NCBI GenBank assembly: GCA_040878085.1
Contig: JBBDMU010000028.1
Location: 22,681-86,680, forward strand
Length of the DNA: 64,000 nt
Direction: 5' to 3'
From: Balneolales bacterium
Lineage (GTDB): Bacteria > Bacteroidota > Rhodothermia > Balneolales > Natronogracilivirgulaceae
The notes beneath the pieces were generated by a model. That model worked only from the letters and a program-made list of their open reading frames with translations. It did no database searches and was not told where the DNA came from. The position numbers and the translations under genes were made by a program. Numbering within the stretch: position 1 is the stretch's first letter; every line of letters begins with the position of its first letter. Below, in pieces: positions 2,741-19,609 of the stretch.

Positions 2741-4699
2741 ATGTGCTTTCAGCCGCAAGATATAAGAATTTTCCTCACTATTTCATTAATCGCAATACTG
2801 GCACAAGTAACGCCCGCGCAGGCTATCCAGGACGGGACGCTGATGGGGATCGAAGTCGCCCCGCGTTCCTTTTTTGATGCCACTCCTACCGACTTTCACG
2901 ATTTGAACGGGAAAGCCATTTTCACGGCCTCAAGTCAGGTAATTTGGGTAAGCGACGGCCACGAAGAGAATACCATAAAGATTGAATTCGAAGGATGGGA
3001 TGAAGTAGACCTTTATGCTGACCGTGTGGCTGCTTTAGACAGCCTGTTTTATTTTCCGGTTCAGGATGCGGAGGGTAACTGGAATATTTGGGCAACCAAT
3101 GGCACCCACGAAGGAACGCGGGAAATTGCAAACGGTGCCCAGGCTGGTTTTTTCAATATCAGATCCATGACCACCTATGGCAGGCGCGTAGCATTTATTT
3201 CCTATGTAGCCGAACAGCAAAAAGACCGCCTGTTTCTGATCAACGAAGATGGCAGTGGAGCAACCATGGTCGACGGGGTGAGCAGAGTCTATAACGGAGG
3301 CACACCCCCTCGTATGGTTGACCTAAACAACACCTTATACATCACCGAATCAGACGGGCAGGAACGGATCTTAAAACGCGTTAGCGAAGAGGGTACCGTA
3401 AGCGAAGCCTGGCGGATGCCCGATGCAAAAGGTACTCAAAACAAAAGCATTCATGGCCTGGCTGTTGCAGGAAGCAGGATCTTTTTTACAGGAAATGACG
3501 GAGATGGTCTTGCGCTTTGGGCTTATCATGACGGGTCGGGCTCCAGGATGTTTAGCCCTGACCCGGATGATGAAGAAAATTTCCGGGTGGCTAATTTAAC
3601 TGCGGTGGGTGAGCTGGCTTATTTCTTTTCCCGGCCCTGGAACGAGGACGTCAATGACTTTTCCAACAATTATCAACTTTATGTGACAGACGGCACGCCC
3701 GGCGGCACCCACCGCATCTGGAAAGAAGAACTTGGAGACGGCCCCGATGCCCATAACGCCCTGAACACGCCCACCGTCGTGGCCGGAGACCGTTTCCTCT
3801 TTGTAGTAGACTACTCGTGGTATAGCGCCCAGGGGAATTCCGCCAGTATCCAGCCGGTTGAGGCAGGAGGCAAAGCCTTCGGCCATGCCAGCAGCTTAAG
3901 CGATCCGGTGAACGTTAAGAACGGGGTGTGGCTGGCTACTAATTCCGACCTGGCATTTATAGGCGCCACAAGCGAAGAGTCTTTTATCGTAGGCCCGGAA
4001 GACATGGTGTATATGAGGAGTCTCGGGGCTGTGGATGATATGCCCTGGTTTGCAGCCCGAATCAGTGGTCGTCTAAATAGCACGGTTTGGCGGGTGGGCA
4101 TTGAAGCTGCAGCAGCTCCTGTTAAGGTAGCCTCCACCTCACCCGAGGCCGGGCAAACAGACGTGGACCTCCTGCCTGATTTTGCATGGACGGAAACGGA
4201 CCCTGCCGACTTCTATCACCTGCAGGTGTCCACTGGGGATTCATTCTCCGAGCTGATCGTCGACACCGCCTCCATCGCCGGAACGACATTTACCCTTGAG
4301 GAGCCCCTGGAAGAAAACACCAAATACTGGTATAGGGTTCGTGCGGAAAACGAAACAGCATCCGGGGAGTGGAGTGATGCCCTAAGTTTCACCACCAAAA
4401 CGCTGACCGGGCTGAACACCGATGATGCCCTGCCTGTGCGGGTCGCTCTGGATCAGAACTATCCCAATCCGTTTAACCCCGCCACGGTGATAGGCTATCA
4501 ACTGCCCGAGCAAAGCCAGGTGCACCTGGCCGTCTACGACCTGCTGGGCCGCCGCGTGGCCGTGCTGGTGGCGGGTGAGGTTGCAGCGGGAAGGCATCAG
4601 GTGCGCTTTGAGGCCGGGGAGCTGGCTTCGGGTATTTATGTATACCGGCTGAGGGCGGGGGAGAAGGTCATTAACAGGAAGCTGATGTTTGTCAGGTGA
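2741..4699 (+). CDS. secreted ELWxxDGT-repeat protein with FN3-like domain and T9SS C-terminal sorting domain
   Basis: Start moved to ATG2741, giving the signal peptide MCFQPQDIRIFLTISLIAILAQVTPAQA. Repeated W-x-(S/T)-(D/N)-G-T motifs are present (VIWVSDGHEENT, NIWATNGTHEGT, QLYVTDGTPGGT). The FN3-like segment reads YHLQVSTGDSF...YWYRVRAENETASGEWS. The C-terminus NYPNPFNPATVIGYQL...GIYVYRL is a T9SS CTD signature. Confidence 0.8.
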   Translation: MCFQPQDIRIFLTISLIAILAQVTPAQAIQDGTLMGIEVAPRSFFDATPTDFHDLNGKAIFTASSQVIWVSDGHEENTIKIEFEGWDEVDLYADRVAALDSLFYFPVQDAEGNWNIWATNGTHEGTREIANGAQAGFFNIRSMTTYGRRVAFISYVAEQQKDRLFLINEDGSGATMVDGVSRVYNGGTPPRMVDLNNTLYITESDGQERILKRVSEEGTVSEAWRMPDAKGTQNKSIHGLAVAGSRIFFTGNDGDGLALWAYHDGSGSRMFSPDPDDEENFRVANLTAVGELAYFFSRPWNEDVNDFSNNYQLYVTDGTPGGTHRIWKEELGDGPDAHNALNTPTVVAGDRFLFVVDYSWYSAQGNSASIQPVEAGGKAFGHASSLSDPVNVKNGVWLATNSDLAFIGATSEESFIVGPEDMVYMRSLGAVDDMPWFAARISGRLNSTVWRVGIEAAAAPVKVASTSPEAGQTDVDLLPDFAWTETDPADFYHLQVSTGDSFSELIVDTASIAGTTFTLEEPLEENTKYWYRVRAENETASGEWSDALSFTTKTLTGLNTDDALPVRVALDQNYPNPFNPATVIGYQLPEQSQVHLAVYDLLGRRVAVLVAGEVAAGRHQVRFEAGELASGIYVYRLRAGEKVINRKLMFVR

Positions 4700-4872
4700 G
4701 ATGGGGAGTGGTTAAGTGAGCAGCATAAAGCGCAAAATGAATTCTGGCCTCATCACGGAAGTTTGTAAAAAAGGTGACAAATAACACTCAAAACGGGTTA
4801 CGTGATGCAGTTTCGGGTTGCGGGTTTTGGTGCTTTTGGACCGTTAAGTTCCCAAAATAGCCGTTATTCTTC

Positions 4873-4986
4873 CTACTTTTGTGATTTGGCAAATTTTACG
4901 TGGCTTCCTTTCTGGCTGACCTCTTGAAATCCAGCTTTTCTTAATTTTCGGGCGACTTCCCGATAGGGTAATCCTTTAGGAGGCAT
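4873..4986 (-). pseudogene. hicA: HicA-family toxin, C-terminally truncated (37 aa)
   Basis: From the internal ATG4986 it reads MPPKGLPYREVARKLRKAGFQEVSQKGSHVKFAKSQK*. The N-terminal HicA half, including G-S-H, is present. The usual 25-35 C-terminal residues are missing. The ATG lies inside the 3' end of hicB (11-nt overlap). Confidence 0.5.
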
Positions 4987-5182
4987 TATGATCAATATCC
5001 AATTGACGGATCTCTGGGATGACGGTAGCATGTGGATCTTCGAAATGAAGCTCCAGTGCCTCACGCAGATTCTCCAATGCTTTTCCTTTGGTCCTTGCCT
5101 GACTGGCTACATCAACTTCTATACACCGTGCGACATACAGGTTGCCTTCTTTCGTTATACTTGCGCTAAAAGTTTTTTTCAT
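4976..5182 (-). CDS. hicB: HicB-like antitoxin (single UPF0150-type domain)
   Basis: 68 aa reading MKKTFSASITKEGNLYVARCIEVDVASQARTKGKALENLREALELHFED, the HicB N-domain pattern. It is directly coupled to the truncated hicA. Confidence 0.7.
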   Translation of the reverse strand: MKKTFSASITKEGNLYVARCIEVDVASQARTKGKALENLREALELHFEDPHATVIPEIRQLDIDHNAS

Positions 5183-5820
5183 AGTTGGTTATTTTAATAC
5201 AGAAAATATCAGCGTAAAATCCTCAAGATGCAAGCTATGCCGTCTACCTGGAAGAAATTTATAAATCGGAAACGCTTATTTATCCCTGATAGTTCTCAAA
5301 ATCTACTTTTGTGGCTTATGATGCATTATGCCAGGCCGGCTGCAGGAAACGAAGCCGAAATGTTCTTAAAACGCAGAGTTCAAATTACACACTCTTATGA
5401 TTTCCGCGATGATTCCTCTGTAAGGGATATCATTCGATTAATAAACTCTCCTTCGGCTGTATGAAACCGTTTCATTTTTTCTTCTTTATTCAGATCCTCT
5501 GCATTGCAAAAAGAGAGGTCCACACCATCTATAGCAAATGACGTATGATTTATCCCCATACCAAATAAAGAGGCGCTTTTTGATTTCTCATATATTTTTG
5601 GAGAGGCATTTAAAGGATATAATAGCCCCCCACAAGTTACTTTGCCCTTCTGAAGGTAATAGGAGTGACTTTAGGTACAGCTCCCATATCTCGGCCATAT
5701 CTATGAAAAAGGAATAGCCTTGATTCGCGGTATCTTTTTTTTCCCGGAACGGACGGCTCTTTATGATATCCCAGGAGAAGTCAATAATTGTTTTCCAATT
5801 CCGATAAATGGCCTTTAGCT

Positions 5821-6009
5821 TTATCGCCTTGTAATCGTGCCTTCATCGTCATAAACAAACGTTTCCGATCCGGGGATATACACATCTCTCATGTCATCCA
5901 ACTTCGACTCCCAAAAATATCTGTCGACGAAGTCATGTGCCTGTACTGACGCATCAAGCCAGATGCTTAATACCTGATCCATATCAGTACTGGTAAATTC
6001 ACGTATCAT
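5821..6009 (-). pseudogene. GNAT-family N-acetyltransferase, N-terminal fragment only
   Basis: From ATG6009 it reads MIREFTSTDMDQVLSIWLDASVQAHDFVDRYFWESKLDDMRDVYIPGSETFVYDDEGTITRR*. This matches only the first ~60 aa of small GNAT enzymes. The acetyl-CoA-binding half is absent and no frame continues it. Confidence 0.5.
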
Positions 6010-6399
6010 TTGATTCAGTCCGGTTTCAAGAGATATTTTGATCCTGGCATTCAGCTTTGTAAATATGTAACCCTGGTATTCCAATCCCAAATGAGTGTAT
6101 AACATATGTTATGTCGGCACTGTTGAAATTACGGCTATAAAATATATTTTATTTTCAATACATAAAATAAAATGGAGAATGATTATGCAATTAGGAGCCC
6201 GATAAATTACCAGTATTATCTGGTAAAAAACTGTTTGGTAAACATTCCCAGTGCTAAGGACTCAAATTATTAGGTTAAGTTTAATCTAAATCCCCGGCAT
6301 CAAGTCCAACATGCCATTAGAGTTTGCATGCCATTTTAAAAAGCAGTATTTAGGTATTACTATTAAACCCTGAATAATCACCCTATTTGCCATCGACCC

Positions 6400-7302
6400 A
6401 TGAGCCAACAGCAAGTGGAGGAAATCCTACACGATAAATACCTGCCCTTCACGGAGGGGGAGCTCAAGGAGCATTTCGTCGAAAAGATGCAGGGCGATAC
6501 ATCCAACCTGAGCCGGCATACCGATTACTTCAAGAACAGCATCGGGCGGTACCGACAATTTGACGGCGTCAACGCACTAGCAACCGGGGATGTGAAGACG
6601 GTGCGGCAGATTGAGAAGGATGAGCGGTTCTGGACGGTGGCGGCTTTGATGACGATGTATCATAGCCACAGCGATATACGGGACACCGGTTTCATCCAGA
6701 TGCTCGCCGGGGCCTTTGGCCCGACTCCTCCGCTGGCCAGCTTCAGCAGCTGGGAGGAGTGCCTGGCCGGGGATGTGCAGCTGTATTTCGAGCCCAACCT
6801 GCCCTCACCGCCTTGTTACCGGGAATGGCTGCAACAGAACCTGGACCATCCGATTCCCTACGTCAGGGAAGGCGCTCAAAACAAAAAGGGTGAGAACCGG
6901 GCCAACCTGGAAGGGGCCACCAACGTGGACGCCCTGCTGATCAACGCATCCAACGGTTTTGCCGTGCTGATCGAGGCCAAGGTGCTCTCGGACATCTCCT
7001 GCCAGGTATCCTACGATATCAAACGAAACCAGATCGCCCGCAACCTGGATGTGATGCTCCATAGCGATGATACGATGACGTCTCCGCTAAATAAGAGAAG
7101 TCCCGGGAACTCCCTGTTTATGCTGCTTACTCCGCAGACATTCAAAGACAACCCGCATGCGCGGTTTTACGGGTATAAGTTCCGGGAATATGCGACGGAC
7201 CCGCGTGCTTTGGCCAATGATTTGCCTCATCGCGGGATAGAAGAGTTGGAAGGCCTGGGCAGGCGGATGGTGGGCGAGCTGGGAGGGCTTGAAAGGGATT
7301 AA
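6400..7302 (+). CDS. uncharacterised protein with PD-(D/E)xK nuclease-like motif
   Basis: 300-aa GC-rich ORF. Residues 177-194 read D-ALLINASNGFAVLI-E-A-K (nt 6928-6981), preceded by the acidic helix KDERFWTVAAL. I cannot name a family. It is co-oriented with gajA and lies 94 nt upstream of it. Confidence 0.5.
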   Translation: MSQQQVEEILHDKYLPFTEGELKEHFVEKMQGDTSNLSRHTDYFKNSIGRYRQFDGVNALATGDVKTVRQIEKDERFWTVAALMTMYHSHSDIRDTGFIQMLAGAFGPTPPLASFSSWEECLAGDVQLYFEPNLPSPPCYREWLQQNLDHPIPYVREGAQNKKGENRANLEGATNVDALLINASNGFAVLIEAKVLSDISCQVSYDIKRNQIARNLDVMLHSDDTMTSPLNKRSPGNSLFMLLTPQTFKDNPHARFYGYKFREYATDPRALANDLPHRGIEELEGLGRRMVGELGGLERD

Positions 7303-7396
7303 TGGGGATTGTTGTGGGTGGTTGGGAAAGGAAAATAGCAGATCATGATTGATGGTATCTGTTGATGCTAATTTTACATATTAAGGTTTATAACAA

Positions 7397-9025
7397 TTGA
7401 GAATTAACAAGATATACATTGAAAATTATAAAAGGTATAAAGGTAAGTTTGAGCTTACATTAAACCCCGAAATCAATATTCTTGTTGGGAATAATGAAGC
7501 AGGGAAATCAACAATCCTAGAAGCTATACATCTTGTATTAACAGGATTATTAAATGGCAGATATCTTAGGACTGAGCTTACACAATACTTGTTTAATAAT
7601 GAAATTGAAGCGGAATACATTAACAGCCTAAATGATCCTAACATTAGTACACTTCCGCCGCCACATATATTAATCGAGGCTTATTTCGAAACAGAACAAT
7701 ACCCATTACTAGAAGGAAATGGAAATAGTGATAGGAGAAAAGCATGTGGTGTATTGCTTAAGATCGAGTTTGACGACGAGTACCAAGCGGAATACGATGA
7801 GTTGATTCAGCAAAGTGTTCGATCCATTCCTATTGAATATTACAAAGTAACCTGGAAATCATTTGCCAGAGATAGTGTTACTGGGCGAAGTATACCTATG
7901 AAGTCTGTCATAATTGACTCTTCTGGAAACAAATATACTAATGGCTCAGATATATACATTTCCAGAATAATTCGGGGTGAGCTAGAAGATACAGATAAGG
8001 TTGCTGTTTCACAGGCTTATAGGAAAATGAAAGAGAGTTTTGCCGAAGATCAATCAATCATAACAGTTAATTCTAAAATTAATGATGTCATTACTCTTTC
8101 AGATAGTAAAACTGTCTCAGTTTCTGTTGACCTAGCTACAAAAGATGCTTGGGAAGCTGGATTGACAACCTACCTTGATAATGTTCCTTTTCAACATATT
8201 GGTAGAGGAGAACAATCTATCATAAAGACTAAACTCGCTCTGGGTAGTACTTCATCTATAAAGGCCGGAGCTATCTTGATAGAAGAACCTGAAAATCATC
8301 TTGGCCACAGCAAACTAAATGAGTTTATTAAAAGTATCCGTGATAATTGTGATGGGAAGCAGATAATAATTTCGACTCATAGTAGCTTCGTTGCTAATAA
8401 GTTGGGACTTAAATATTTGCTTTTACTTGATAATCAAAAAATCGCACGATTTAATGAACTTTCCCAAGAGACACAAGATTTTTTTGATAAGCTACCTGGC
8501 TATCAAACATTAAGACTTCTTCTTTGTCATAAGGCAATCTTAGTAGAGGGCGATTCTGATGAGTTAATCTTTCAAAAGGCATTTATGGATACCCATAATG
8601 ATGTATTGCCGATTGAAAAATTAATTGATGTAATCTCTGTGAAGTTAACCTTTAAAAGATTTCTGCAAATTGCTAAACTAATAGAAAAACCAGTTGCTGT
8701 TGTTACAGATAACGATGGCAATTATGCTCAAACAATAGAAAAGAAGTATGAGGAATTTGATGGCATTGGCAAAATCAGAGTGTTCGCAGATGATAATAAT
8801 GAACTAAATACATTAGAGCCACAATTTGTAGATGCTAACTCTGAACAGTTAGAGAAATTATGTGAAGTTATTGATATTAGTTATTCGGCATATAATACGA
8901 AAGAAAAGATAATTGAATATATGGAGAGTAATAAAACCAAGTGGGCTTTGGCTGTGTTTAAATCAATTGAAAAACTTAACTACCCAAGCTACATAAATAA
9001 TGCAGTAAAATGGTGTGATGAATAA
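7397..9025 (+). CDS. gajA: OLD-family ATPase/Toprim endonuclease, GajA-like (Gabija)
   Basis: 542 aa with a TTG start. It has Walker A GNNEAGKST, Walker B-like ILIEEPENHL and an H-loop IISTHSS. The C-terminal Toprim has AILVEGDSDELIF and AVVTDNDGN. A UvrD-like helicase gene follows directly. Confidence 0.8.
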   Translation: MRINKIYIENYKRYKGKFELTLNPEINILVGNNEAGKSTILEAIHLVLTGLLNGRYLRTELTQYLFNNEIEAEYINSLNDPNISTLPPPHILIEAYFETEQYPLLEGNGNSDRRKACGVLLKIEFDDEYQAEYDELIQQSVRSIPIEYYKVTWKSFARDSVTGRSIPMKSVIIDSSGNKYTNGSDIYISRIIRGELEDTDKVAVSQAYRKMKESFAEDQSIITVNSKINDVITLSDSKTVSVSVDLATKDAWEAGLTTYLDNVPFQHIGRGEQSIIKTKLALGSTSSIKAGAILIEEPENHLGHSKLNEFIKSIRDNCDGKQIIISTHSSFVANKLGLKYLLLLDNQKIARFNELSQETQDFFDKLPGYQTLRLLLCHKAILVEGDSDELIFQKAFMDTHNDVLPIEKLIDVISVKLTFKRFLQIAKLIEKPVAVVTDNDGNYAQTIEKKYEEFDGIGKIRVFADDNNELNTLEPQFVDANSEQLEKLCEVIDISYSAYNTKEKIIEYMESNKTKWALAVFKSIEKLNYPSYINNAVKWCDE

Positions 9026-10175
9026 AAATAGACTCATTATAGCATCAGCTGGTTCTGGTAAGACTACAAAAATTGTCAACGAGGCATTAAGTCTTTTAGG
9101 AGAAAATGTGTTAATTACCACTTACACGGAGGCTAATGCAGCTGAGATTAGGCGCAAATTTATTGAAAAACGAAAAGCACTACCATCAAATATTACCATA
9201 CAAACCTGGTTTTCGTTCTTAATTCAGCATGGCGTGAAACCTTACCAGGGAGCATTAAATGAAATGCTATATCAGTACAATATTAGAGGGTTGTCGCTAA
9301 GTGATGGAGAATCAGGTATAAAATATACTAGACGAATTAATGATAGAACAGTCAATGTAACATTCAAGGAAGATGGTGAGTTTATACAGCATTACTTCAC
9401 AAATAGTCAAAGAATATATTCAGACAAGTTATCCAAGTTCGTTTTTAAAGCTAATTTAAAAACAGCAAATGAAGTGATTGAACGTATTAGTAGGATATAC
9501 TCAAACGTCTTTATTGATGAAGTGCAAGATTTGGCTGGTTATGATCTTGAATTTATCAAACTATTATTTGAAAGTCAGTCACAAGTTCTGTTGGTTGGAG
9601 ATCCGAGGCAAGTAACTTATGTAACTCATCATGCAAGGAAGAATGCAAAATATCGGGATGGAAATATTAAAGGATATTTACTTGAGAAGTGCCATTCATT
9701 AATTAAGGATGGAATTGATGAGGTATCATTAATTAAATCACACAGGAACAATCGTTCTATTTGCGAGTTTTCCTCAAAACTTTATCCTAACTATCCTTCT
9801 TCTGTGCCATGTTCATGCTGTGAAAATGCTGCTAAAGATGGGTTTAGCGGCGTTTACTTGGTAAAATCTGAAGATGTGAATTCATATTTAGCTTCTTTTA
9901 ACCCTATGCAATTACGATGGAATCTATCCGTGCTAGTTAATCACAACCATAAAGTTCTAAACTATGGTGAATCAAAGGGTATGACGTTTGACAGAGTGCT
10001 CATATATCCAACTTTACCGATGCGAAACTGGATAATGAATAATGAATATAATCTAAAAAATGAAGCAAGAGCTAAATTTTATGTAGGGTTGACAAGGGCA
10101 AGATATAGCTCAGCTATTGTTTTTGATTATTGTGATCAAACTGAATATGATGGTATGATTAAATATCATGCTTAG
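9018..10175 (+). CDS. gajB: UvrD/Rep-like SF1 helicase, compact GajB-like (Gabija)
   Basis: About 385 aa from ATG9018, overlapping the gajA stop by 8 nt. SF1 motifs seen: ASAGSGKTT (I), FIDEVQDL (II), LVGDPRQ (III), ESKGMTFDRVLIY (V) and YVGLTRAR (VI). Confidence 0.75.
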   Translation: MNKNRLIIASAGSGKTTKIVNEALSLLGENVLITTYTEANAAEIRRKFIEKRKALPSNITIQTWFSFLIQHGVKPYQGALNEMLYQYNIRGLSLSDGESGIKYTRRINDRTVNVTFKEDGEFIQHYFTNSQRIYSDKLSKFVFKANLKTANEVIERISRIYSNVFIDEVQDLAGYDLEFIKLLFESQSQVLLVGDPRQVTYVTHHARKNAKYRDGNIKGYLLEKCHSLIKDGIDEVSLIKSHRNNRSICEFSSKLYPNYPSSVPCSCCENAAKDGFSGVYLVKSEDVNSYLASFNPMQLRWNLSVLVNHNHKVLNYGESKGMTFDRVLIYPTLPMRNWIMNNEYNLKNEARAKFYVGLTRARYSSAIVFDYCDQTEYDGMIKYHA

Positions 10176-10256
10176 TTTGCTAATAGCTATTAACACCTTA
10201 AATTACCCCTGCTCCACCTAACCCGCTAACACCCATTACAACCCGTACCACCCCAT

Positions 10257-11825
10257 ATGTCCGAAGAAGAAAAGAAACGCCTTGAGACCCAGCTGTGGGG
10301 CATTGCCAACCTGCTCCGGGGCAAGATCAGCGCCGATGATTACCGCGACTACATCCTCGGGTTCATTTTCTACAAGTACCTGTCGGAAAAGCAGTACCTG
10401 TACGCCAACGAGCTGCTGAAGGGGGAGAAGGTGACCGATTTCAAGAACGTTACGGACACCGAAACCCTGGACGCCATCAAGGAAGAATCTTTGCTCACCC
10501 TGGGGTATTATTTGGAGCCTTCCCAGCTGTTCTCGGTGCTGGCCGCCAAGGGCAATGCTGATACGGAAAGCGAGAGCAACTACATTCTGGAAGATTTGAA
10601 GGCGGTGCTGAACCACATCGAGCAAAGCACCATGGGCACGGAATCCGAAGAGGATTTTAACGCCCTGTTTGAGGACCTGGACCTGAACTCCACCAAGATT
10701 GGCCGGACGGTGGGGGCCCGCAACGAGATCATCGTAAAAATCCTGATCCACCTGGATCAGATCGACTTCAAGCTGAAGGAAATCGATTCGGATGTGCTGG
10801 GCGATGCCTATGAGTACCTGATTGCCAAGTTCGCGGCCGGGGCGGGTAAGTCAGCCGGGGAGTTCTACACCCCTCAGCAGGTGTCGAAGATCCTGGCGAA
10901 GATTGTGACGACGGGCAAGACCAAGATTCGCTCGGCGTACGATCCTACCTGCGGGTCCGGGTCGCTGCTGCTGCGCGTGGCCAAAGAGGCCGCCGTGAGC
11001 GAGTTCTACGGACAGGAGCAGAACCGAACCACGTATAACCTGGCCCGGATGAACATGATCCTGCACGATGTGCATTTCCGGAAGTTTCATATTGAGCAGG
11101 ATGATACCCTGGAACAGCCGCGGCATCTGGAGAAGCGTTTTGAGGCGGTGGTGGCCAACCCGCCGTTCTCCGCCCACTGGAAAAGTGATGCCAACCCCCT
11201 GAACAGCGGGGATGAGCGGTTCAGCCAGTACGGCCGCCTGGCCCCGAAGACCAAGGCGGATTACGCCTTCCTGCAGCACATGCTCTACCAGCTGGCCGAT
11301 AACGGCATCATGTCCAGTGTGTTCCCCCACGGGGTGCTGTTCCGGGGAGCCGCCGAAGGCATCATCCGGGAGTACCTGATCAAGGAAAAGAATGTGGTGG
11401 ACGCGGTGATCGGATTGCCGGCCAATATCTTTTACGGCACCTCCATCCCTACCTGTATCCTGGTGCTTAAAAAGTGCCGTGAGGTGGATGATAATATCGT
11501 ATTCATCGATGCCAGCGGGGAGGACCATTATATCAAAAGCGGCAATCAAAACGCCCTGCGCGATGAGGATGTTGAGCGCATCATCAGCGCCTACCGCAAC
11601 CGCGAGACGATAGACAAGTACAGCTATGCAGCTCCATTGGAGGAAATATTGGAGAATGATTACAACCTGAATATCCCCCGCTATGTGGATACCTTTGAAG
11701 AGGAAGAGCCGGTTGATCTGGATGACGTGGTTGCGGAGCTAAAGGGGTTGGAAGCTGAATTGGATTCGACCAATGATGAGATAGTGGCTTTTTGCCGTGA
11801 ACTGAATATTTCAACTCCGTTTTAA
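10257..11825 (+). CDS. hsdM: type I restriction-modification system, DNA methyltransferase subunit
   Basis: 522 aa. The N-terminus LWGIANLLRG is the HsdM N-domain. AdoMet motif I is YDPTCGSGSLLL. The catalytic motif IV VVANPPF indicates an N6-adenine MTase. Confidence 0.95.
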   Translation: MSEEEKKRLETQLWGIANLLRGKISADDYRDYILGFIFYKYLSEKQYLYANELLKGEKVTDFKNVTDTETLDAIKEESLLTLGYYLEPSQLFSVLAAKGNADTESESNYILEDLKAVLNHIEQSTMGTESEEDFNALFEDLDLNSTKIGRTVGARNEIIVKILIHLDQIDFKLKEIDSDVLGDAYEYLIAKFAAGAGKSAGEFYTPQQVSKILAKIVTTGKTKIRSAYDPTCGSGSLLLRVAKEAAVSEFYGQEQNRTTYNLARMNMILHDVHFRKFHIEQDDTLEQPRHLEKRFEAVVANPPFSAHWKSDANPLNSGDERFSQYGRLAPKTKADYAFLQHMLYQLADNGIMSSVFPHGVLFRGAAEGIIREYLIKEKNVVDAVIGLPANIFYGTSIPTCILVLKKCREVDDNIVFIDASGEDHYIKSGNQNALRDEDVERIISAYRNRETIDKYSYAAPLEEILENDYNLNIPRYVDTFEEEEPVDLDDVVAELKGLEAELDSTNDEIVAFCRELNISTPF

Positions 11826-11828
11826 GCT

Positions 11829-13064
11829 ATGATAGAAGTCAAAGAAGCAGTAATACCGGAGTTGAGGTTTCCTGAGTTTGAGGATGAATGGATTAAGAAA
11901 AAACTAGGAAAATTAGGTGACTTTTGTGGTGGTGGAACACCTAGTAGCTTAATAGATGAGTATTGGATTGGACCCATCCCTTGGATATCTAGTTCTGACA
12001 TTAAGGAAGATACAGTTCAAGAGGTTGAAATATCACGTTTCATTTCGGCGAAAGCCATCAAAAACTCTGCCACTAAATTAATCCCAAAAAATAGTATTCT
12101 AATTGTGTCAAGAGTAGGAATTGGGAAATTTGCCGTTGCAAAACAAGACCTTTGCACGAGCCAAGATTTTACCAATTTGATACCTTATAAAGATAATTCA
12201 TTATTTCTAGCTTACTATTTCAAAGCAAAATCGAATCGCTTCAAAAGTTTAAGTCAAGGAACATCAATCAAAGGTTTTACAGGTCGGGATATACGTGGTT
12301 TGAAATTTATTATTCCTCTTAATAATACCGAACAGCAAAAAATCGCCACCTTCCTCACCGCTGTAGACAAACGCATCCAACTGCTGCAACAAAAGAAAGA
12401 AAAGCTGGAGCGATACAAAAAAGGAATGATGCAGAAGCTGTTCAGTCAGGAAATACGGTTTAAGGATGAGAATGGTGGGGATAATCGGGATTGGGAGGAG
12501 AAGAAGTTGGGGGAAGTCTTATTTGAGCATAAAGAGAGGAATTCCACTAATATTGTGACAGAGGTATTTTCTGTTTCTAAAGGAAAGGGAGTTGTTAATC
12601 AAATTGAACATTTGGGGAGATCTTATGCCGCTGAGTCTATTAAACACTATAAGGTTGCAAACCCAGGTGATATCATTTATACAAAAAGCCCAACAAGTGA
12701 CTTCCCATTTGGCATAATAAAGCAAAATTTAACTGAGAGGATAGGTGTCACTTCACCCCTTTATGGGGTATTTAGTCCTCGTAATTCTGCTTTAGGTTAT
12801 ATTATTCATAGTTATTTTTTGTCTTGGGTTAATACGTATAACTATTTAATACCTCTAGTGCATAGAGGTGCAAAAAACACCATGAACATTAATAATTATG
12901 AGTTTTTGAATGGTGCAAAGATACTGTTACCCAAATCAGAACAAGAACAACAAAAAATAGCTGCCTTCCTTTCATCCCTCGATAAAAAAATAAATCAGGT
13001 ATCCCAACAAATCCAGCACACCCAAACCTGGAAAAAAGGCTTACTCCAAAAGATGTTCGTATAA
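11829..13064 (+). CDS. hsdS: type I restriction-modification system, specificity subunit
   Basis: 411 aa. Two variable AT-rich target-recognition regions are separated by duplicated conserved helices: EQQKIATFLTAVDKRIQLLQQKKEKLERYKKGMMQKLF and EQQKIAAFLSSLDKKINQVSQQIQHTQTWKKGLLQKMF. It starts 3 nt after the hsdM stop. Confidence 0.9.
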   Translation: MIEVKEAVIPELRFPEFEDEWIKKKLGKLGDFCGGGTPSSLIDEYWIGPIPWISSSDIKEDTVQEVEISRFISAKAIKNSATKLIPKNSILIVSRVGIGKFAVAKQDLCTSQDFTNLIPYKDNSLFLAYYFKAKSNRFKSLSQGTSIKGFTGRDIRGLKFIIPLNNTEQQKIATFLTAVDKRIQLLQQKKEKLERYKKGMMQKLFSQEIRFKDENGGDNRDWEEKKLGEVLFEHKERNSTNIVTEVFSVSKGKGVVNQIEHLGRSYAAESIKHYKVANPGDIIYTKSPTSDFPFGIIKQNLTERIGVTSPLYGVFSPRNSALGYIIHSYFLSWVNTYNYLIPLVHRGAKNTMNINNYEFLNGAKILLPKSEQEQQKIAAFLSSLDKKINQVSQQIQHTQTWKKGLLQKMFV

Positions 13065-13065
13065 T

Positions 13066-15927
13066 ATGACCTCCCAACCCGAAGCCATACTGGAAAGCAA
13101 CCTCATCGCCCAGCTGGAGAAGCTGGGGTATGGGCGTGTGGTCATCCGGGATGAGAAAGATTTGCTGGCCAACCTGAAAGGGCAGCTCGAAAAGCATAAT
13201 AAGATCAGCCTAAGCGATAACGACTTCAGGCAGATCCTCAATTACATCAACAAGGGGAATATTTTTCAGAAGGCCCGGATCCTGCGCGACCGGGTACCGT
13301 ATGTAGACGGTCAGGGCGAGACCCGCACCGTACAGCTGATCAACCAGATCCACTGGTGCCAAAACGAGTTTCAGGTCACCAGTCAGGTCACCATGGAAGG
13401 CAGCTATAAGAACCGCTATGACGTGACCATACTGATCAACGGGCTGCCCCTGGTGCAGATCGAGCTCAAGCGGCGCGGGCTGGAGCTGAAGGAGGCGTTT
13501 AACCAGACCAACCGATACGAGCGCCATTCGTTCGGGGCCGGCCAGGGGCTGTTCCAGTTCATCCAGGTGTTTGTGATCAGCAACGGGGTCAATACCAAGT
13601 ATTATGCCAACAACTCCGTCAAAGGGCGCACCTTTAAACAGACCTTCTATTGGGCGGGCGAGGATAACAAGATTATCACCCAGCTTTCCAAATTCACCGA
13701 TATCTTCCTGGAGCCCTGCCATATTTCCAAGATGATTACCAAATACGTGGTGATCAACGAATCGGAGAAGATGCTGATGGTGCTCAGGCCGTACCAGTTC
13801 TACGCCACCGAGGCCATCATCGAAAGGGTGAGGACGCAGAAGGCGGCTACCGAACCCAAGTACGGCTATATCTGGCACACAACGGGTTCAGGCAAGACCC
13901 TGACCTCCTTCAAGACCGCGCAGATCCTTACCAACCTGCCTGAGGTCCATAAGGTGGTGTTTGTGGTAGACCGCAGGGATCTGGACAACCAGACCACCAA
14001 AGAGTTCAACAGCTTCAGCAAAGGCAGCATCGATGGCACCAATAACACCAGGGCTCTGGTGGATCAGTTGTCCGGAGACAACAAGATCATCGTCACCACC
14101 ATACAGAAGCTCAATACGGCCGTCAGCAAGAAACGGTACCTGGGCAAGCTGGAAGGGCTTAAAGACAAGCGCATTGTGTTCATCTTCGATGAGTGCCACC
14201 GCAGCCAGTTTGGCAAGACCCACAAGGCGATTAAGGACTTCTTCGGGAACTGTCAGATGTTCGGCTTTACCGGCACCCCTATTTTTAAGAAGAACGCCGG
14301 GGGCAATGAGTTCGGCAAGCGCACCACGGGCATGCTCTTCGGCGACTGCCTGCACAAGTATGTGATCACCGACGCCATCCGCGACGAGAATGTGCTGAAA
14401 TTCTCCATCGAATACATCAGCACCTTCCGCAAGAAGGAGGAAATTCAGGATATTGAGGTGGAGGCCATTGATGAGGCCGAGGTGATGAACGCTCCACAGC
14501 GCCTGAACCGCATCGCCGATTATATAATCTCTCACCACGACCGCAAGACCCACAACCGCAAGTTTACGTCTATTTTTTGTGTGTCCAGCATCCCCGCGCT
14601 GATTGAATACTACGACCTTTTCCTGAAGAAAAAGCAGGAGGGCCTGCACAATTTGAAGGTGGCCACCATCTTTTCCTATCAGGCCAATGAGGATGACAAG
14701 GACGCGGTGGGTTTCATCGAGGATGAGGAGTTTCTGACGGCCGCCGAGCCGCAGACCAGTTACGACACCCAGCATTCGCGGGATCATCTGGAGCGGTTTA
14801 TCGGTCTGTATAACCAGCAGTACGGAACCAATTTCTCGACCCGGGACAGCGAGTCGTTTTACAACTACTACAAAGACATCGCCAAGCGGGTGAAGGCCCG
14901 GCAGATTGATGTGCTGCTGGTGGTGAACATGTTCCTCACCGGCTTCGACAGCAAGCCCCTGAACACCCTGTACGTAGACAAGAACCTGAAGTACCACGGC
15001 CTTCTTCAGGCCTACTCGCGCACCAACCGGGTTCTGGATGAGCTGAAGAGCCAGGGGCAGATTGTGAGTTTCCGGAATTTAAAGTCCGCCACTGACGAGG
15101 CTATCACCCTGTTCTCTACCCTGGATGCTAAAGATGAGATCATTCTAAAGCCCTACGCGGAATACGTGGTCCAGTTCAACCAGGCCTACATCGCCCTGCT
15201 TCAGATCGCCCCCACCGTGGACAGCGTGAACCTGCTGAAGAGCGAAGATGACGAGCTGGCCTTCATCAAAGCCTTCCGCGAGCTGATGCGCCTGAAGAAT
15301 GTGCTGAGCACCTTCACCGATTTCACCTTCGATGACTTGTCGATGGATGAGCAGCGGTTTGAGGATTATAAGAGCAAGTATCTGGACCTGTACGACAAGA
15401 CCAAAAAGGAAACGGCGAAGCAGAAGGTTTCTATCCTTCAGGATGTGGATTTTGAGCTGGAGCTGATTCACCGGGATGAGATCAATGTTAAGTATATCAT
15501 GAATCTTCTGGAGGCCCTCAAGGATGCCGCCCCGGAGGACCAGGCCCGGCAGCGCAAGGCGATTGTGGAGCTTATGGCGGGGGATGCGGAGCTTCGCAGC
15601 AAGCGGGAGCTGATCGAGAAGTTTATCGCCGAGAATCTGCCGGCAATTGCCGACTCGGCTGATGTGGCCGATGAGTTTGACTCGTTCTGGAGCGAGCAGC
15701 GGAAGCTGGCCTTCGACGCGTTGAGCGCCGAGGAGGGGCTGGATGCGGCCCGCCTGGAGGAGGTGATCGGCGAGTATTTGTTTACCGAGAAGCCCCCATT
15801 GCGCGATGATGTGATCGGGATGATGAATGAGCGCCCCGCCCTGAAGCAGCGTGCACGGGCGGCCGAGCGGATAACAAGAAGGATGCGGGGATTTGTGGAG
15901 ACGTTTGTGAGCGGGGTGGCGGGGTAA
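13066..15927 (+). CDS. hsdR: type I restriction enzyme, R (endonuclease/translocase) subunit
   Basis: 953 aa. The N-terminal nuclease motif is RYDVTILINGLPLVQIELKR (D...ExK). SF2 motor motifs are HTTGSGKTLT (I) and FIFDECHRSQ (II). It starts 1 nt after the hsdS stop. Confidence 0.95.
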   Translation: MTSQPEAILESNLIAQLEKLGYGRVVIRDEKDLLANLKGQLEKHNKISLSDNDFRQILNYINKGNIFQKARILRDRVPYVDGQGETRTVQLINQIHWCQNEFQVTSQVTMEGSYKNRYDVTILINGLPLVQIELKRRGLELKEAFNQTNRYERHSFGAGQGLFQFIQVFVISNGVNTKYYANNSVKGRTFKQTFYWAGEDNKIITQLSKFTDIFLEPCHISKMITKYVVINESEKMLMVLRPYQFYATEAIIERVRTQKAATEPKYGYIWHTTGSGKTLTSFKTAQILTNLPEVHKVVFVVDRRDLDNQTTKEFNSFSKGSIDGTNNTRALVDQLSGDNKIIVTTIQKLNTAVSKKRYLGKLEGLKDKRIVFIFDECHRSQFGKTHKAIKDFFGNCQMFGFTGTPIFKKNAGGNEFGKRTTGMLFGDCLHKYVITDAIRDENVLKFSIEYISTFRKKEEIQDIEVEAIDEAEVMNAPQRLNRIADYIISHHDRKTHNRKFTSIFCVSSIPALIEYYDLFLKKKQEGLHNLKVATIFSYQANEDDKDAVGFIEDEEFLTAAEPQTSYDTQHSRDHLERFIGLYNQQYGTNFSTRDSESFYNYYKDIAKRVKARQIDVLLVVNMFLTGFDSKPLNTLYVDKNLKYHGLLQAYSRTNRVLDELKSQGQIVSFRNLKSATDEAITLFSTLDAKDEIILKPYAEYVVQFNQAYIALLQIAPTVDSVNLLKSEDDELAFIKAFRELMRLKNVLSTFTDFTFDDLSMDEQRFEDYKSKYLDLYDKTKKETAKQKVSILQDVDFELELIHRDEINVKYIMNLLEALKDAAPEDQARQRKAIVELMAGDAELRSKRELIEKFIAENLPAIADSADVADEFDSFWSEQRKLAFDALSAEEGLDAARLEEVIGEYLFTEKPPLRDDVIGMMNERPALKQRARAAERITRRMRGFVETFVSGVAG

Positions 15928-16379: not shown

Positions 16380-18875
16380 ATGATGAATATGAAGAATTAT
16401 AACAGCCGGTTGATAGAGCGTGAAAACACGCTACCTGACAATACAGCTTATCAAACCATGCTTGACTGGTTCAGTAGTCGTGGCTGGAAACCATTCTCCT
16501 ACCAGGAGCAAATGTGGCAGGCTTATCTCGATGGTTTTAGCGGTATCCTTAATGCCCCAACGGGCACAGGAAAAACACTTGCCGTAGTCATACCACCCCT
16601 CATGAAATGGATGCATGATCATGCGGATTACCGTAAGCGAAAACCAAACGGCCTGAAAATACTTTGGATCACCCCGTTGCGCGCACTTGCAAGAGATACT
16701 GAAAAAGTTATTTCTACCTTGTTAGATGAACTGGGAATACCCTGGGAAGTGCTGCGTCGTACCGGAGACGCGTCAGCCTCAGTGAAACAGAGAATCGGTA
16801 AGCGACCTCCTGAAGTTTTGATCACCACACCGGAAAGCCTGCATCTTATGCTGGCCCGCAAAGGGCACGAGATGACTTTTAATACATTAAAGGCAGTAAT
16901 CGTTGATGAATGGCATGAACTATTGGGTAGTAAACGCGGCGTTCAGGTAGAGCTCGCGCTATCGCGTATCAGACAGATAAGAAGTGATTTGAAAACGTGG
17001 GGGCTGTCGGCCACAATTGGCAATTTTGAAACAGCTCTGGAGGTACTCGTGGGTTCAGCGGAAAAACAGATGATCATTCCGTCCGGTATGGAAAAAAAAA
17101 TTGAAGTTAACTCAGTTATTCCTGATGAGATAGAAAAATTCCCCTGGGCGGGACATCTTGGAATACATTTGCTGGAAAAAGTTTATCCTGTAATAAAAAA
17201 GAGCGGGACAACTTTACTTTTTACCAATACCAGATCGCAGACTGAGATCTGGTATAACCGGATACTGGAAACCTATCCTGAATTAGCCGGCAGAATGGCT
17301 ATTCACCATGGCTCTATAAGTTCTGATATCCGGGGCTGGGTTGAAGATGCTTTGCACGCGGGTAGCTTACAGCTTGTGATCTGCACATCCAGTCTTGATC
17401 TGGGTGTGGATTTTAGCCCCGTAGATACGGTGATACAGGTAGGAAGTCCCAAAGGGGTTGACCGTTTCCTTCAGCGGGCGGGACGCAGCGGCCATCAGCC
17501 CGGGGCGGTTAGTAGAATTTGGTTTGTACCCACACATGCTCTCGAACTATTGGAAGCGGCCGCTTTAAAAACCGCCATGGCTGAGGGTTTCATAGAAAGC
17601 CGCGAACCAGTTATCAACCCTCTGGATGTACTCGTTCAATATTTGCTTACACTGGCAACCGGCGATGGATTTGATCAAAAACGGATATATCATGAAATCC
17701 GCAGCACTTATGCCTTCAAGGGCTTAACAGAAGGTGAATGGGAATGGGTGCTTAAGTTTTTATTAACTGGAGGTAATGCTCTGAAGCGGTATGAGGATTA
17801 TTCACGTGTATATGAAGAAAATGGGCTATACCAGATATCCGGGAGACGCATAGCAAAGCGTCATCGGATGTCTATTGGCACCATTGTTGGCGATCCCAGT
17901 TTGCAAGTGAAATATATAACGGGAGGGTATTTGGGCTCAATTGAGGAATCCTTTATTTCAAAAATGCGAAAGGGTGATGTTTTTCTTTTCGCCGGCAGAT
18001 ACCTGGAGTTTATCAGAATCAAGGATCTCACGGTTTATGTCCGCAAAACAAAAAAGAAGAAAGGAGCAACAAGCCGGTGGATGGGAGGGAGGATGGCCCT
18101 CAGCAGCCGTTTATCCGAAATGATAAGAACCACTATACGCAAAGCAAAAGATGGGATTGAGGATTCAATAGAAGTTAAAACAATACAGCCGATCCTGGAT
18201 TTACAGGAAAAGCTCTCAGCTTTGCCTCGTGAGAATGAACTTTTGATTGAAAAAATACAATCTAAAGAAGGCTTTCATCTATTCTTTTATCCTTTTGAAG
18301 GTAGGCTGGTTCACGAAGGGTTGGCATCACTATTTGCCTGGAGAATATCACGAATTCAACCTATATCCTTCTCCCTGGCCATGAACGATTATGGTTTCGA
18401 ACTGCTTTCCGACCGTGAAGCTCCCCTTGAAGAAGCCATCTGCAACCGGCTGTTTTCTGCAGATCAATTATCCGGAGATATACATTCCAGCATTAATTCA
18501 ACTGAAATGGCCAGGAGACACTTCCGTGAAATAGCACGGATTTCAGGACTCGTTTTTCAGGGTTATCCTGGAAATAGTGTTTCGGGAAAGCATTTACAGG
18601 CTTCATCTCAAATGATTTTTGAGGTTTTCCAAAAGCATGACCCCGGCAACTTATTGGTGAAGCAAACATTTCGTGAAATAATGAACTTTCAGCTAAAAGA
18701 AACTCATCTGCGGCGTGCGCTAGAGCGTATTAATCATGGTAAACTCCTCGTTAAAGAGCCCGGTAAAGCAACCCCTTTTGCATTTCCGATTATGGTTGAC
18801 AGACTGAGAGATGAATTAACTTCAGAAAAACTCTATGACCGGATTAGACGCATGCAACGTCAATTGCAGAAGTAA
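16380..18875 (+). CDS. Lhr-like 'ligase-associated DNA damage response' DExH-box helicase
   Basis: 831 aa. Motif I is NAPTGTGKT and motif II is VIVDEWHELL (DExH). It has a long C-terminal extension typical of the Lhr-core/DEAD-H-associated domain. pdeM follows. Confidence 0.85.
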   Translation: MMNMKNYNSRLIERENTLPDNTAYQTMLDWFSSRGWKPFSYQEQMWQAYLDGFSGILNAPTGTGKTLAVVIPPLMKWMHDHADYRKRKPNGLKILWITPLRALARDTEKVISTLLDELGIPWEVLRRTGDASASVKQRIGKRPPEVLITTPESLHLMLARKGHEMTFNTLKAVIVDEWHELLGSKRGVQVELALSRIRQIRSDLKTWGLSATIGNFETALEVLVGSAEKQMIIPSGMEKKIEVNSVIPDEIEKFPWAGHLGIHLLEKVYPVIKKSGTTLLFTNTRSQTEIWYNRILETYPELAGRMAIHHGSISSDIRGWVEDALHAGSLQLVICTSSLDLGVDFSPVDTVIQVGSPKGVDRFLQRAGRSGHQPGAVSRIWFVPTHALELLEAAALKTAMAEGFIESREPVINPLDVLVQYLLTLATGDGFDQKRIYHEIRSTYAFKGLTEGEWEWVLKFLLTGGNALKRYEDYSRVYEENGLYQISGRRIAKRHRMSIGTIVGDPSLQVKYITGGYLGSIEESFISKMRKGDVFLFAGRYLEFIRIKDLTVYVRKTKKKKGATSRWMGGRMALSSRLSEMIRTTIRKAKDGIEDSIEVKTIQPILDLQEKLSALPRENELLIEKIQSKEGFHLFFYPFEGRLVHEGLASLFAWRISRIQPISFSLAMNDYGFELLSDREAPLEEAICNRLFSADQLSGDIHSSINSTEMARRHFREIARISGLVFQGYPGNSVSGKHLQASSQMIFEVFQKHDPGNLLVKQTFREIMNFQLKETHLRRALERINHGKLLVKEPGKATPFAFPIMVDRLRDELTSEKLYDRIRRMQRQLQK

Positions 18876-18955
18876 ACGTTACCCCATTTGGTAAAACTTT
18901 CAGGCTGCGTGTATTAAACCTAAAAAACAATACGGATAAATTACCTTATTTGATT

Positions 18956-19609
18956 ATGCCGAACAGTAAATATTTATATATAGCTGGAGAATGGCTTGAA
19001 CTTCTTCCAGAGAAGGCTATCTATTGGTCAGATAAAAAGATTCTCATTATCGCGGATACACATTTCGGTAAAGTCGGTACATTTCGTCAGGCGGGGATAC
19101 CCATACCCCATAAATTAGCCTGTTCAAATTTTGACAAACTGAATCATTTGCTCAATCAGAAGCTGGTTGAACGATGTATTGTGCTGGGCGATCTTTTCCA
19201 CAGCAAGATGAATGGACAGTGGAACATTCTAAATGACTGGCTAAAGCAGTATCCTGATATCTCTTTTGAGCTTGTAATGGGAAATCATGACATCCTTGAA
19301 GTAAACTGGTATGAAGAAACAGGAATTCTTGTTCACAAAAAGTTCCTGATTGAACCACCTTTTTACCTGGTTCATGATCCAGAACATTATACCAATAGCC
19401 ATGGATATTACGGTTTATGCGGCCACGTTCACCCCGGCGTAAAGCTTACAGGAAAAGCTCAGCGTAGCGTGAGGCTTCCCTGCTTCTATTTTGGATCGAA
19501 ATATTCAATACTGCCGGCATTTGGTGCTTTTACCGGTTTTGTTAACATGCTAACCAAAAAAGATGACCGGGTATTTGTTATAGCCGAAAATCAGATTATA
19601 AAAGTGTAG
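18956..19609 (+). CDS. pdeM: ligase-associated DNA damage response metallophosphoesterase PdeM
   Basis: About 217 aa. Calcineurin-like phosphoesterase motifs are IIADTHFGK, LGDLFH, MGNHD and CGHVHP. It is positioned immediately after the Lhr-like helicase. Confidence 0.8.
   Translation: MPNSKYLYIAGEWLELLPEKAIYWSDKKILIIADTHFGKVGTFRQAGIPIPHKLACSNFDKLNHLLNQKLVERCIVLGDLFHSKMNGQWNILNDWLKQYPDISFELVMGNHDILEVNWYEETGILVHKKFLIEPPFYLVHDPEHYTNSHGYYGLCGHVHPGVKLTGKAQRSVRLPCFYFGSKYSILPAFGAFTGFVNMLTKKDDRVFVIAENQIIKV

Follow-up and report, generated by a model that had tools for sequence, protein, structure and literature searches.

The window analysed here is a 64,000-nucleotide stretch of a Balneolales genome (assembly GCA_040878085.1, contig JBBDMU010000028.1), and its positions 6400–7302 (plus strand) hold an open reading frame (ORF) of 300 amino acids, with an ATG start, just upstream of a Gabija cassette and a type I restriction-modification (R-M) operon. 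This ORF is the window copy of a protein family in which a catalytic-type D/E/K triad is conserved, the fold class is PD-(D/E)xK and the genes are organised singly. The window copy carries a frameshift close to its 3’ end. The ORF is read here as one copy of an undescribed family of solitary, immune-type PD-(D/E)xK DNA nucleases, and the window copy as frameshifted and probably inactive; the probability of this reading is put at roughly 0.6.

The features of the ORF on which this reading draws are as follows.

6400..7302, plus strand: the frame-1 ORF, a member of the unnamed PD-(D/E)xK-type family by its homologues and its profile score (375.6 bits, positions 1–283 of 303), with the last 11 residues aberrant (VGELGGLERD...)
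6607..6624, plus strand: conserved acidic motif Q70-I-E72-K73-D74-E75, at the junction of two core helices ahead of the sheet
6928..6981, plus strand: conserved catalytic-type motif D177-(x14)-E192-A-K194, in the predicted beta2-beta3 hairpin (strands 178–182 and 187–193)
7270, plus strand: frameshift site, CGG ATG G/TGG, a putative loss of two nucleotides from a Gly codon, indicated by profile scores and by the same DNA in a second assembly (L071)
7271..7348, plus strand: out-of-frame remnant of the ancestral C-terminus, WASWEGLKGINGDCCGWLGKENSRS, with stop codon TGA at 7346–7348 and all conserved tail residues present

An unnamed family with a restriction-endonuclease-like core

A preliminary description of this DNA, made from the sequence alone, could not assign the ORF to any family, and the searches agree with it. 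The ORF had no match in Pfam, PADLOC, NCBIfam or PDB sequences (phmmer), and a single non-significant match in PHROGs (E=0.059); an hmmsearch of PDB with the family profile gave no usable match. A permissive Pfam scan of 114 family members did not converge on any domain – DUF6231 was matched in 11 of them (E≥0.017), REase-ARP in 2, and NERD in 1.

The family itself is large. There are 569 homologues in a large protein collection, typically 300–315 amino acids long and 45–54% identical, all annotated as ‘hypothetical’ and all without Pfam domains. An exhaustive profile search at the 50% identity level (E≤1e-3) found 864 clusters. Among the 185,579 species genomes scanned there were 70 family loci, which are spread over many bacterial and archaeal phyla at 45–55% identity and include Bacteroidota, Desulfobacterota, Actinomycetota, Planctomycetota, Acidobacteriota, Thorarchaeota, Bathyarchaeia, Archaeoglobales and others. 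The family was found neither in 50,697 phage genomes nor in IMG/VR contigs, and the only match in plasmids was a distant one. By its sequence, then, the ORF belongs to a real, widespread and unnamed family. Its distribution is rare and patchy, yet the family is well conserved, which points to horizontal spread rather than to a housekeeping role; the rarity itself (70 loci in 185,579 species genomes) also argues against such a role. The family appears undescribed in Pfam, NCBIfam, PADLOC and PHROGs, while the general kind to which it belongs, solitary PD-(D/E)xK nucleases of defence islands, is already known.

Copy number and integrity vary among the homologues. A Streptosporangiaceae metagenome-assembled genome (MAG), JBEKJP01, has two family copies on separate contigs (L052 and L067), and the copy at another locus (L065) is broken into two ORFs, so that both multi-copy genomes and disrupted copies occur.

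The residues expected of a nuclease active site are among the best preserved. D177 (codon 6928–6930), E192 and K194 (codon 6979–6981) are all invariant in an alignment of 40 sequences; in an alignment of 114 sequences E192 and K194 are still invariant and D177 is at least 90% conserved. The motif is thus no mere chance pattern. Further invariant positions in the smaller alignment, with which the larger agrees, are Q70, E171, S197, D198, S200, N210, Q211, R214 and D217. In both alignments E72, K73, D74 and E75 are at least 90% conserved. The preliminary description had placed D177, E192 and K194 correctly and had noticed an acidic helix, KDERFWTVAAL, ahead of them, which occupies residues 73–83; the peptide that it gave for the motif, VDALLINASNGFAVLIEAK, actually begins one residue earlier, at V176 (6925).

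Several cysteines and histidines are also conserved. C121 (in SWxEC) is near-invariant in the family and invariant in the 40-sequence alignment, the conserved histidines in window numbering are H11, H25, H40 and H277, and there is a near-invariant C-terminal Cys in C-x-W-L, which the window frameshift takes away. These residues hint at a possible structural metal site, or a ‘staple’ joining the C-terminus to the core.

Structures were predicted with AlphaFold2 for the window ORF (predicted local distance difference test score, pLDDT, 83.5; predicted template-modelling score, pTM, 0.85) and for P0019, an intact homologue from a BREX locus (pLDDT 92.3, pTM 0.91). The elements of the window model are, in order, a helix at 65–87 (split as 65–72 and 75–87), strands at 126–130, 178–182 and 187–193, a helix at 211–219 and a strand at 238–243, and the order in P0019 is the same. 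This predicted alpha-beta-beta-beta-alpha-beta order, which is a comparison of element order in models, fits the canonical restriction-endonuclease-like core, with the D on the second strand and the ExK on the third. The conservation and the predicted beta2-beta3 hairpin together bear out the restriction-endonuclease-like core that the preliminary description had seen in D177...E192-A-K194. In the modelled core the QIEKDE motif probably supplies a metal-ligand glutamate.

Foldseek with predicted structures, which had been proposed as a check of the fold, gave weak matches of nuclease type. The best match in PDB was LmuA (9nxx_D), with E=7e-3, a probability of 0.96 and 163 aligned columns; other weak matches were Shedu SduA, Avs3, MunI, HamA, McrC, Can2, FokI, Cap4, HindIII and the RecB nuclease domain. 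The top matches are thus overwhelmingly PD-(D/E)xK nucleases, chiefly those of defence systems, and none of them is close. The picture was the same in the viral structure library (BFVD), where the weak matches include RecE, lambda-exonuclease-like and DUF2800 proteins. For the modelled parts of the protein outside the core, no known structural relative was seen among the Foldseek matches. Judged by its conserved motif and predicted fold, the assignment of the family to the PD-(D/E)xK superfamily is sound.

The C-terminal frameshift

Members of the family end in a tail with the consensus R-[LIM]-G-W-x-[TS]-W-E-[DE]-...-N-x-x-C-x-W-L. This tail is absent from the frame-1 product of the window, and it is encoded instead in the +1 frame from 7271 (WASWEGLKGINGDCCGWLGKENSRS, stop at 7346–7348). 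The preliminary description had read the shifted frame across the stop as ...GGWWASWEGLKGINGDCCGWLGKENSRS*, which is exactly what is found, and had suspected from it that the C-terminus was damaged. The damage is real; the suspicion was given too little weight, as the copy is probably non-functional.

The position and nature of the lesion can be narrowed down by repair of the reading frame. Frame 1 as it stands matches the family profile with 375.6 bits over positions 1–283 of 303. A repaired product in which a Gly is restored after the Met scores 409.5 bits over positions 1–302, and a repaired product without the Gly scores 399.6 bits over the same positions. The lesion is therefore best explained by the loss of two nucleotides from a GGN codon at about nucleotide 7270 – the assembled DNA at the site reads ATGGTGG, while an intact gene would read ATGGGNTGG at 7267–7273. 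The lesion is recent, since the shifted frame still encodes every conserved tail residue. In P0019 the counterpart of the lost segment is a confidently predicted strand (282–286) followed by two helices, and its loss is thus likely to be damaging. Judged from the family tail and this model, the window copy is most likely inactive, a young pseudogene in which roughly the last 26 conserved residues have been replaced. Programmed frameshifting was set aside by inspection only, there being no slippery heptamer at CGG ATG GTG G.

The same DNA is found at the frameshift site in a second Balneolales MAG (GCA_040904125.1, a 4.3-kb contig, L071). This contig is 100% identical to the window over 6916–11053 (4.1 kb) and differs from it only at the contig ends. 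The possibility that L071 (P0001) is a separate relative, with the frameshift inherited, was considered and rejected, because identity of 100% over 4.1 kb means that it comes from the same population. Since it is the same population assembled twice, a random assembly error is unlikely, though a systematic one is still possible.

An artefact of sequencing or assembly, with the gene intact and functional in the organism, would account for a +1 frame that keeps every conserved C-terminal residue without decay. The putative lesion is in a G-rich context (GGATGGTGGG), and the sole second observation of it is from the same population. However, two separate assemblies, the 64-kb window and the 4.3-kb contig of GCA_040904125.1, are identical at the site, errors rarely take the form of a 2-nucleotide deletion away from a long homopolymer, and neighbouring genes are also decayed, including a truncated HicA. 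An artefact is considered unlikely.

A diverged stretch lies at one end of the region shared with L071. Window positions 6761–6915 and L071 positions 1–170 have 33 differences within 155 nucleotides, including an in-frame 3-nucleotide indel. The stretch corresponds to ORF residues 121–172 approximately, a poorly conserved loop. Either its divergence stems from strain-level recombination or micro-diversity within the gene, or the contig end is chimeric.

Genomic context of the family and of the window copy

Neighbouring genes were called crudely in all of the loci and clustered all-versus-all, and no neighbour family was common to more than 6 of 65 loci. In 40 of 72 loci there is a close, co-oriented ORF upstream of the family gene. 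A hidden two-gene system or antitoxin was nevertheless rejected, as BLASTP (E<0.01) and four rounds of jackhmmer with these upstream ORFs joined only near-identical lineages. A Pfam census found 118 families among 113 immediate neighbours and 128 among the 147 neighbours at positions 2 and 3. The most recurrent neighbour families, with two or three occurrences each, were PLDc_2, N6_Mtase/HsdM_N, ResIII, AAA_15/AAA_21, HNH and phage integrase, and these are typical of defence or mobile DNA. The only methyltransferase among the 113 immediate neighbours was PglX of BREX, so that an adjacent cognate methyltransferase, as expected of a type II R-M endonuclease, was not found.

Annotation of long contigs gene by gene shows some of the loci in defence islands. 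In two of them (L079, 10001–10933, and L081, 10001–10948) the family gene is between pglX and pglZ of a complete type 1 BREX operon, in the order BrxA-BrxB-BrxC-PglX-[gene]-PglZ-BrxL. One family gene follows a HamA-HamB (Hachiman) pair, and another abuts an Mrr_cat gene. Three further islands contain, besides the family gene, genes for PLD, SNF2, AAA_15 and integrase; for Cas1/2, HEPN-NTase, Fic, an SLFN-like ATPase and MjaI; and for WYL/WCX, PDDEXK_4 and PDDEXK_5, respectively. A census of homologue neighbourhoods had been proposed as a way to detect enrichment next to hsdM, OLD nucleases or defence islands. Defence islands do recur, but few loci have hsdM-like genes near the family gene, and no neighbour is conserved. 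Two more genes are inserted in the L081 BREX operon, one of them for DUF2971 and the other weakly matching the RES domain.

Most members of the family are stand-alone proteins. In three cases (P0130, P0133 and an ORF of L038) the family module is at the C-terminus of a sacsin/HATPase_c_3 (GHKL) ATPase. The last of these, at 3611–11023 of the L038 locus from a Gemmataceae MAG, is an ORF of 2470 amino acids with two sacsin/HATPase_c_3 domains and a C-terminal family domain, its boundaries being crude calls in a high-GC genome; it follows a DpdJ/MkoA-like helicase of 1168 amino acids. By analogy, such GHKL fusions are the behaviour of a nuclease effector domain. The fusion partners in P0125, P0184, P0202, P0204 and P0212 had no Pfam match.

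Several observations weigh against an immune nuclease, or against its inactivation in the window. The nuclease activity and phage immunity of the family are what we infer from conserved residues and models, and the spatial clustering of the D/E/K triad is likewise a prediction from modelled elements. No Foldseek match in PDB reached E≤1e-3 and the template-modelling (TM) scores were at most 0.28, so that the fold assignment is carried by the core. Many homologues lie among housekeeping genes, and the Flavobacteriales copies are in a small variable spot between polyprenyl synthase and TonB-dependent receptor genes. The recurrence of defence islands is a matter of plain locus tallies. As to the window copy, the second frameshifted assembly comes from the same population, making a shared systematic sequencing error possible, and the truncated protein might keep some activity.

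The housekeeping neighbours at many loci, the integrases and transposases among the neighbours, and the weak BFVD matches to RecE, lambda-exonuclease-like and DUF2800 proteins would all suit a family that is not immune at all, but a nuclease of DNA repair or recombination, or a selfish (homing or toxin-like) nuclease, with coincidental defence neighbours. This is improbable, though it deserves more weight than the two window-specific readings discussed below. The extreme patchiness of the family (70 loci in 185,579 species across both domains, at 45–55% identity) is unlike that of a repair gene, phage genomes and IMG/VR contigs yielded no members in the searches above, the neighbour searches revealed no conserved partner of an antitoxin or immunity type, and family genes turn up repeatedly within BREX operons and next to genes of Hachiman, Mrr and CRISPR.

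The two other readings concern the genes next to the ORF in the window, where the downstream order is GajA, GajB, HsdM, HsdS, HsdR and an Lhr-like helicase. GajA and GajB were confirmed with PADLOC (1e-207 and 1.5e-131), and the identities of the Hsd proteins were also confirmed. Both systems are given here for context.

7397..10175, plus strand: gajA-gajB (Gabija) cassette, AT-rich, identified by PADLOC, with no functional link to the ORF
10257..15927, plus strand: type I R-M operon hsdM-hsdS-hsdR

The G+C content at third codon positions (GC3) is 0.72 in the ORF, 0.75 in hsdM and 0.78 in hsdR, but 0.27 in gajA/gajB and 0.34 in hsdS; the mean GC content of the window is 0.444. The ORF therefore resembles hsdM and hsdR in composition and not gajAB, as the preliminary description had stated, and the difference in GC3 between the ORF and gajAB (0.72 vs 0.27) indicates separate origins.

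The preliminary description had offered the ORF as an accessory or third component of a Gabija variant, and as such it would be an accessory nuclease, co-transcribed with gajAB and working with the OLD-type ATPase GajA. As had been noted, the ORF and gajA are co-oriented, with 94 nucleotides between the ORF stop and the gajA start (7397). Counted from the ancestral stop the gap is 48 nucleotides; no plus-strand terminator was detected between the genes, in a scan for sigma-70 promoters and terminators that was otherwise uninformative. L071 has the same gene order, and pairings of an OLD-family ATPase with a PD-(D/E)xK nuclease are known from published work. L071 is however the same population as the window, and with GajA and GajB probes it was the only one of about 65 loci in which these genes were adjacent to the family gene, so that gajA and gajB are absent from every independent homologue locus. 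In addition, the window GajA already contains a TOPRIM nuclease domain and is paired with a full GajB, and gajAB is intact whereas the ORF is frameshifted. A role in Gabija is extremely unlikely. Little better can be said of the other proposal, that the ORF is a former partner of hsdMSR (an extra restriction or anti-restriction subunit) split off by the insertion of Gabija. Its GC3 is near that of hsdM and hsdR and differs from both the genome average and gajAB, a pattern that fits co-transfer from a similar donor and later insertion of the AT-rich gajAB. Yet only two other loci (L040 and L055) have hsdM/hsdR-like genes within 10 kb of the family gene, on the opposite strand in L040, and N6_Mtase or HsdM_N was found in only 2–3 of 260 neighbours. 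Type I R-M needs no such protein to be complete. What remains is the compositional resemblance, which would signify at most a common DNA ancestry and no functional link, and the proposal is very doubtful.

The defence block as a whole (6400–15927) is strongly mosaic in composition. An AT-rich hsdS flanked by GC-rich hsdM and hsdR genes suggests that the specificity subunit has been swapped, and the GC-rich stretch of the ORF stops near the ancestral stop at 7348, not at the frame-1 stop. The GC-rich segments could share a donor, while the AT-rich gajAB and hsdS could have arrived in separate events. GajB (9015–10175, 386 amino acids) matches the short PADLOC model PDLC00148 (369 positions) from end to end, and is thus of a compact GajB subtype rather than truncated.

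Upstream of the ORF, at 4873–5182 on the minus strand, are what appear to be remnants of a HicAB-like toxin-antitoxin pair: a 63-amino-acid ORF that covers only positions 1–29 of the 58 of HicA_toxin, overlapping a 68-amino-acid DUF7387 ORF that is HicB-like by eye. They suggest a decaying variable region. Directly downstream of hsdR, in the region 16380–19609, is an Lhr-like helicase (WH_Lhr, DEAD_assoc) that also fits the PADLOC BrxHI and SngC helicase models, and the gene after it has a weak Metallophos_2 match, below the Pfam cut-off. Together the two genes resemble the Lhr-MPE repair pair.

Relation to known systems and proposed function

Shedu (SduA) is similar to the family in several ways. 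Each is a single gene whose product has a PD-(D/E)xK core and a non-catalytic N-terminal region, with no methyltransferase partner; the lack of an obligate partner in the ORF family follows from the absence of any conserved neighbour. Both have been found linked to BREX, and SduA is among the top weak structural matches. Occasional N-terminal fusions to GHKL ATPases occur in both families (for Shedu, Gu et al.). However, the Foldseek probability for SduA is only 0.35, and the N-terminal helical region and the GW..WE..C.WL tail are conserved in the ORF family, while Shedu N-termini are hypervariable. The Shedu family was defined by PSI-BLAST with DUF4263 (Gu et al.). The ORF matched neither DUF4263 nor the PADLOC SduA model, and DUF4263 was not detected in any of the 114 members at E≤5, so the ORF does not belong to the Shedu family. 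The remaining suggestion of the preliminary description, a solitary nuclease that resembles Shedu or type IV enzymes, is favoured as a mode of working but not as membership of Shedu.

Type IV enzymes of the Mrr and McrC kinds are also solitary genes with a restriction endonuclease fold, without a cognate methyltransferase, spread patchily by horizontal transfer and found in defence islands, and McrC is among the weak structural matches. There was no Pfam, NCBIfam or PADLOC match to Mrr_cat, McrB/McrC or GmrSD, and in the ORF family no recognisable reader of modified bases (SRA, EVE or winged helix) was detected.

The core itself is structurally most similar to the nucleases of the LmuA/Cap4 type (Lamassu, CBASS Cap4 and the Avs3 nuclease domain), with Avs3 and Cap4 also matched. 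They act as nuclease effector modules joined to an ATPase or a sensor, much as the family domain is joined in its GHKL fusions. The similarity is distant, with a TM-score of about 0.2, 12–18% identity and no PADLOC match to LmuA or Cap4, and most members of the family stand alone with no LmuB/SMC, SAVED or STAND partner. Iyer, Abhiman and Aravind reportedly described prokaryotic MORC/GHKL ATPase-nuclease modules in 2008. The three family members with the domain C-terminal to sacsin/HATPase_c_3 GHKL resemble such modules, and the L038 fusion is beside a helicase, but GHKL fusions are a small minority of the family and the window protein has no ATPase.

A recent comparative study reports that, of the auxiliary nucleases found within BREX loci, stand-alone PD-(D/E)xK restriction endonucleases (REases) are the commonest (PMC12839542), and the L079 and L081 homologues are in the arrangement described there. 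Of about 70 loci only these 2 have that arrangement, which the window lacks, and the likeness drawn here is to the general kind. BrxU, a type IV enzyme embedded in BREX, is a GmrSD/HNH enzyme and not of the PD-(D/E)xK type.

The family consists of proteins of about 300 amino acids in which a PD-(D/E)xK core is extended by helices at the N-terminus and by a conserved C-terminal part, rich in Trp and Cys, made up of a strand and helices. Taken as immune nucleases, they would be Mg2+-dependent DNA endonucleases, acting through D177, E192, K194 and a glutamate of the QIEKDE helix. Such a nuclease would act alone in innate immunity and need no cognate methyltransferase or antitoxin. Since neither is conserved beside the genes, discrimination between self and non-self would have to be built into the enzyme, which might recognise foreign DNA modification, as type IV enzymes do, or DNA ends or structures, as Shedu does. 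In some lineages the module may have become the nuclease effector of sacsin/GHKL ATPases, and in two lineages the gene may serve as an auxiliary nuclease inside BREX operons. The window copy would have been acquired independently, as a GC-rich single-gene block that lies by chance beside Gabija and type I R-M in a defence island, and would then have been inactivated by the 2-nucleotide deletion at about nucleotide 7270. The window locus is not a new multi-component system.

A broader proposal, more tentative than the reading above and held at somewhat less than even odds, is that the family is an unrecognised single-gene anti-phage system of bacteria and archaea. It would be neither partnered by a methyltransferase nor a DUF4263 Shedu, its discrimination would lie in a conserved, His/Tyr-rich N-terminal region and the Trp/Cys tail, and it would have been recruited by sacsin/GHKL ATPases and as a back-up nuclease of BREX.

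For annotation, the window gene should not be described as part of Gabija or of the type I R-M system, and should be flagged as frameshifted. If intact members do protect against phage, a compact, single-gene family of immune nucleases of about 300 amino acids, with more than 800 clusters, would join the catalogue of defence systems. It would also provide a concrete candidate for the auxiliary nucleases of BREX, and GHKL/sacsin ATPases would gain a new effector module.

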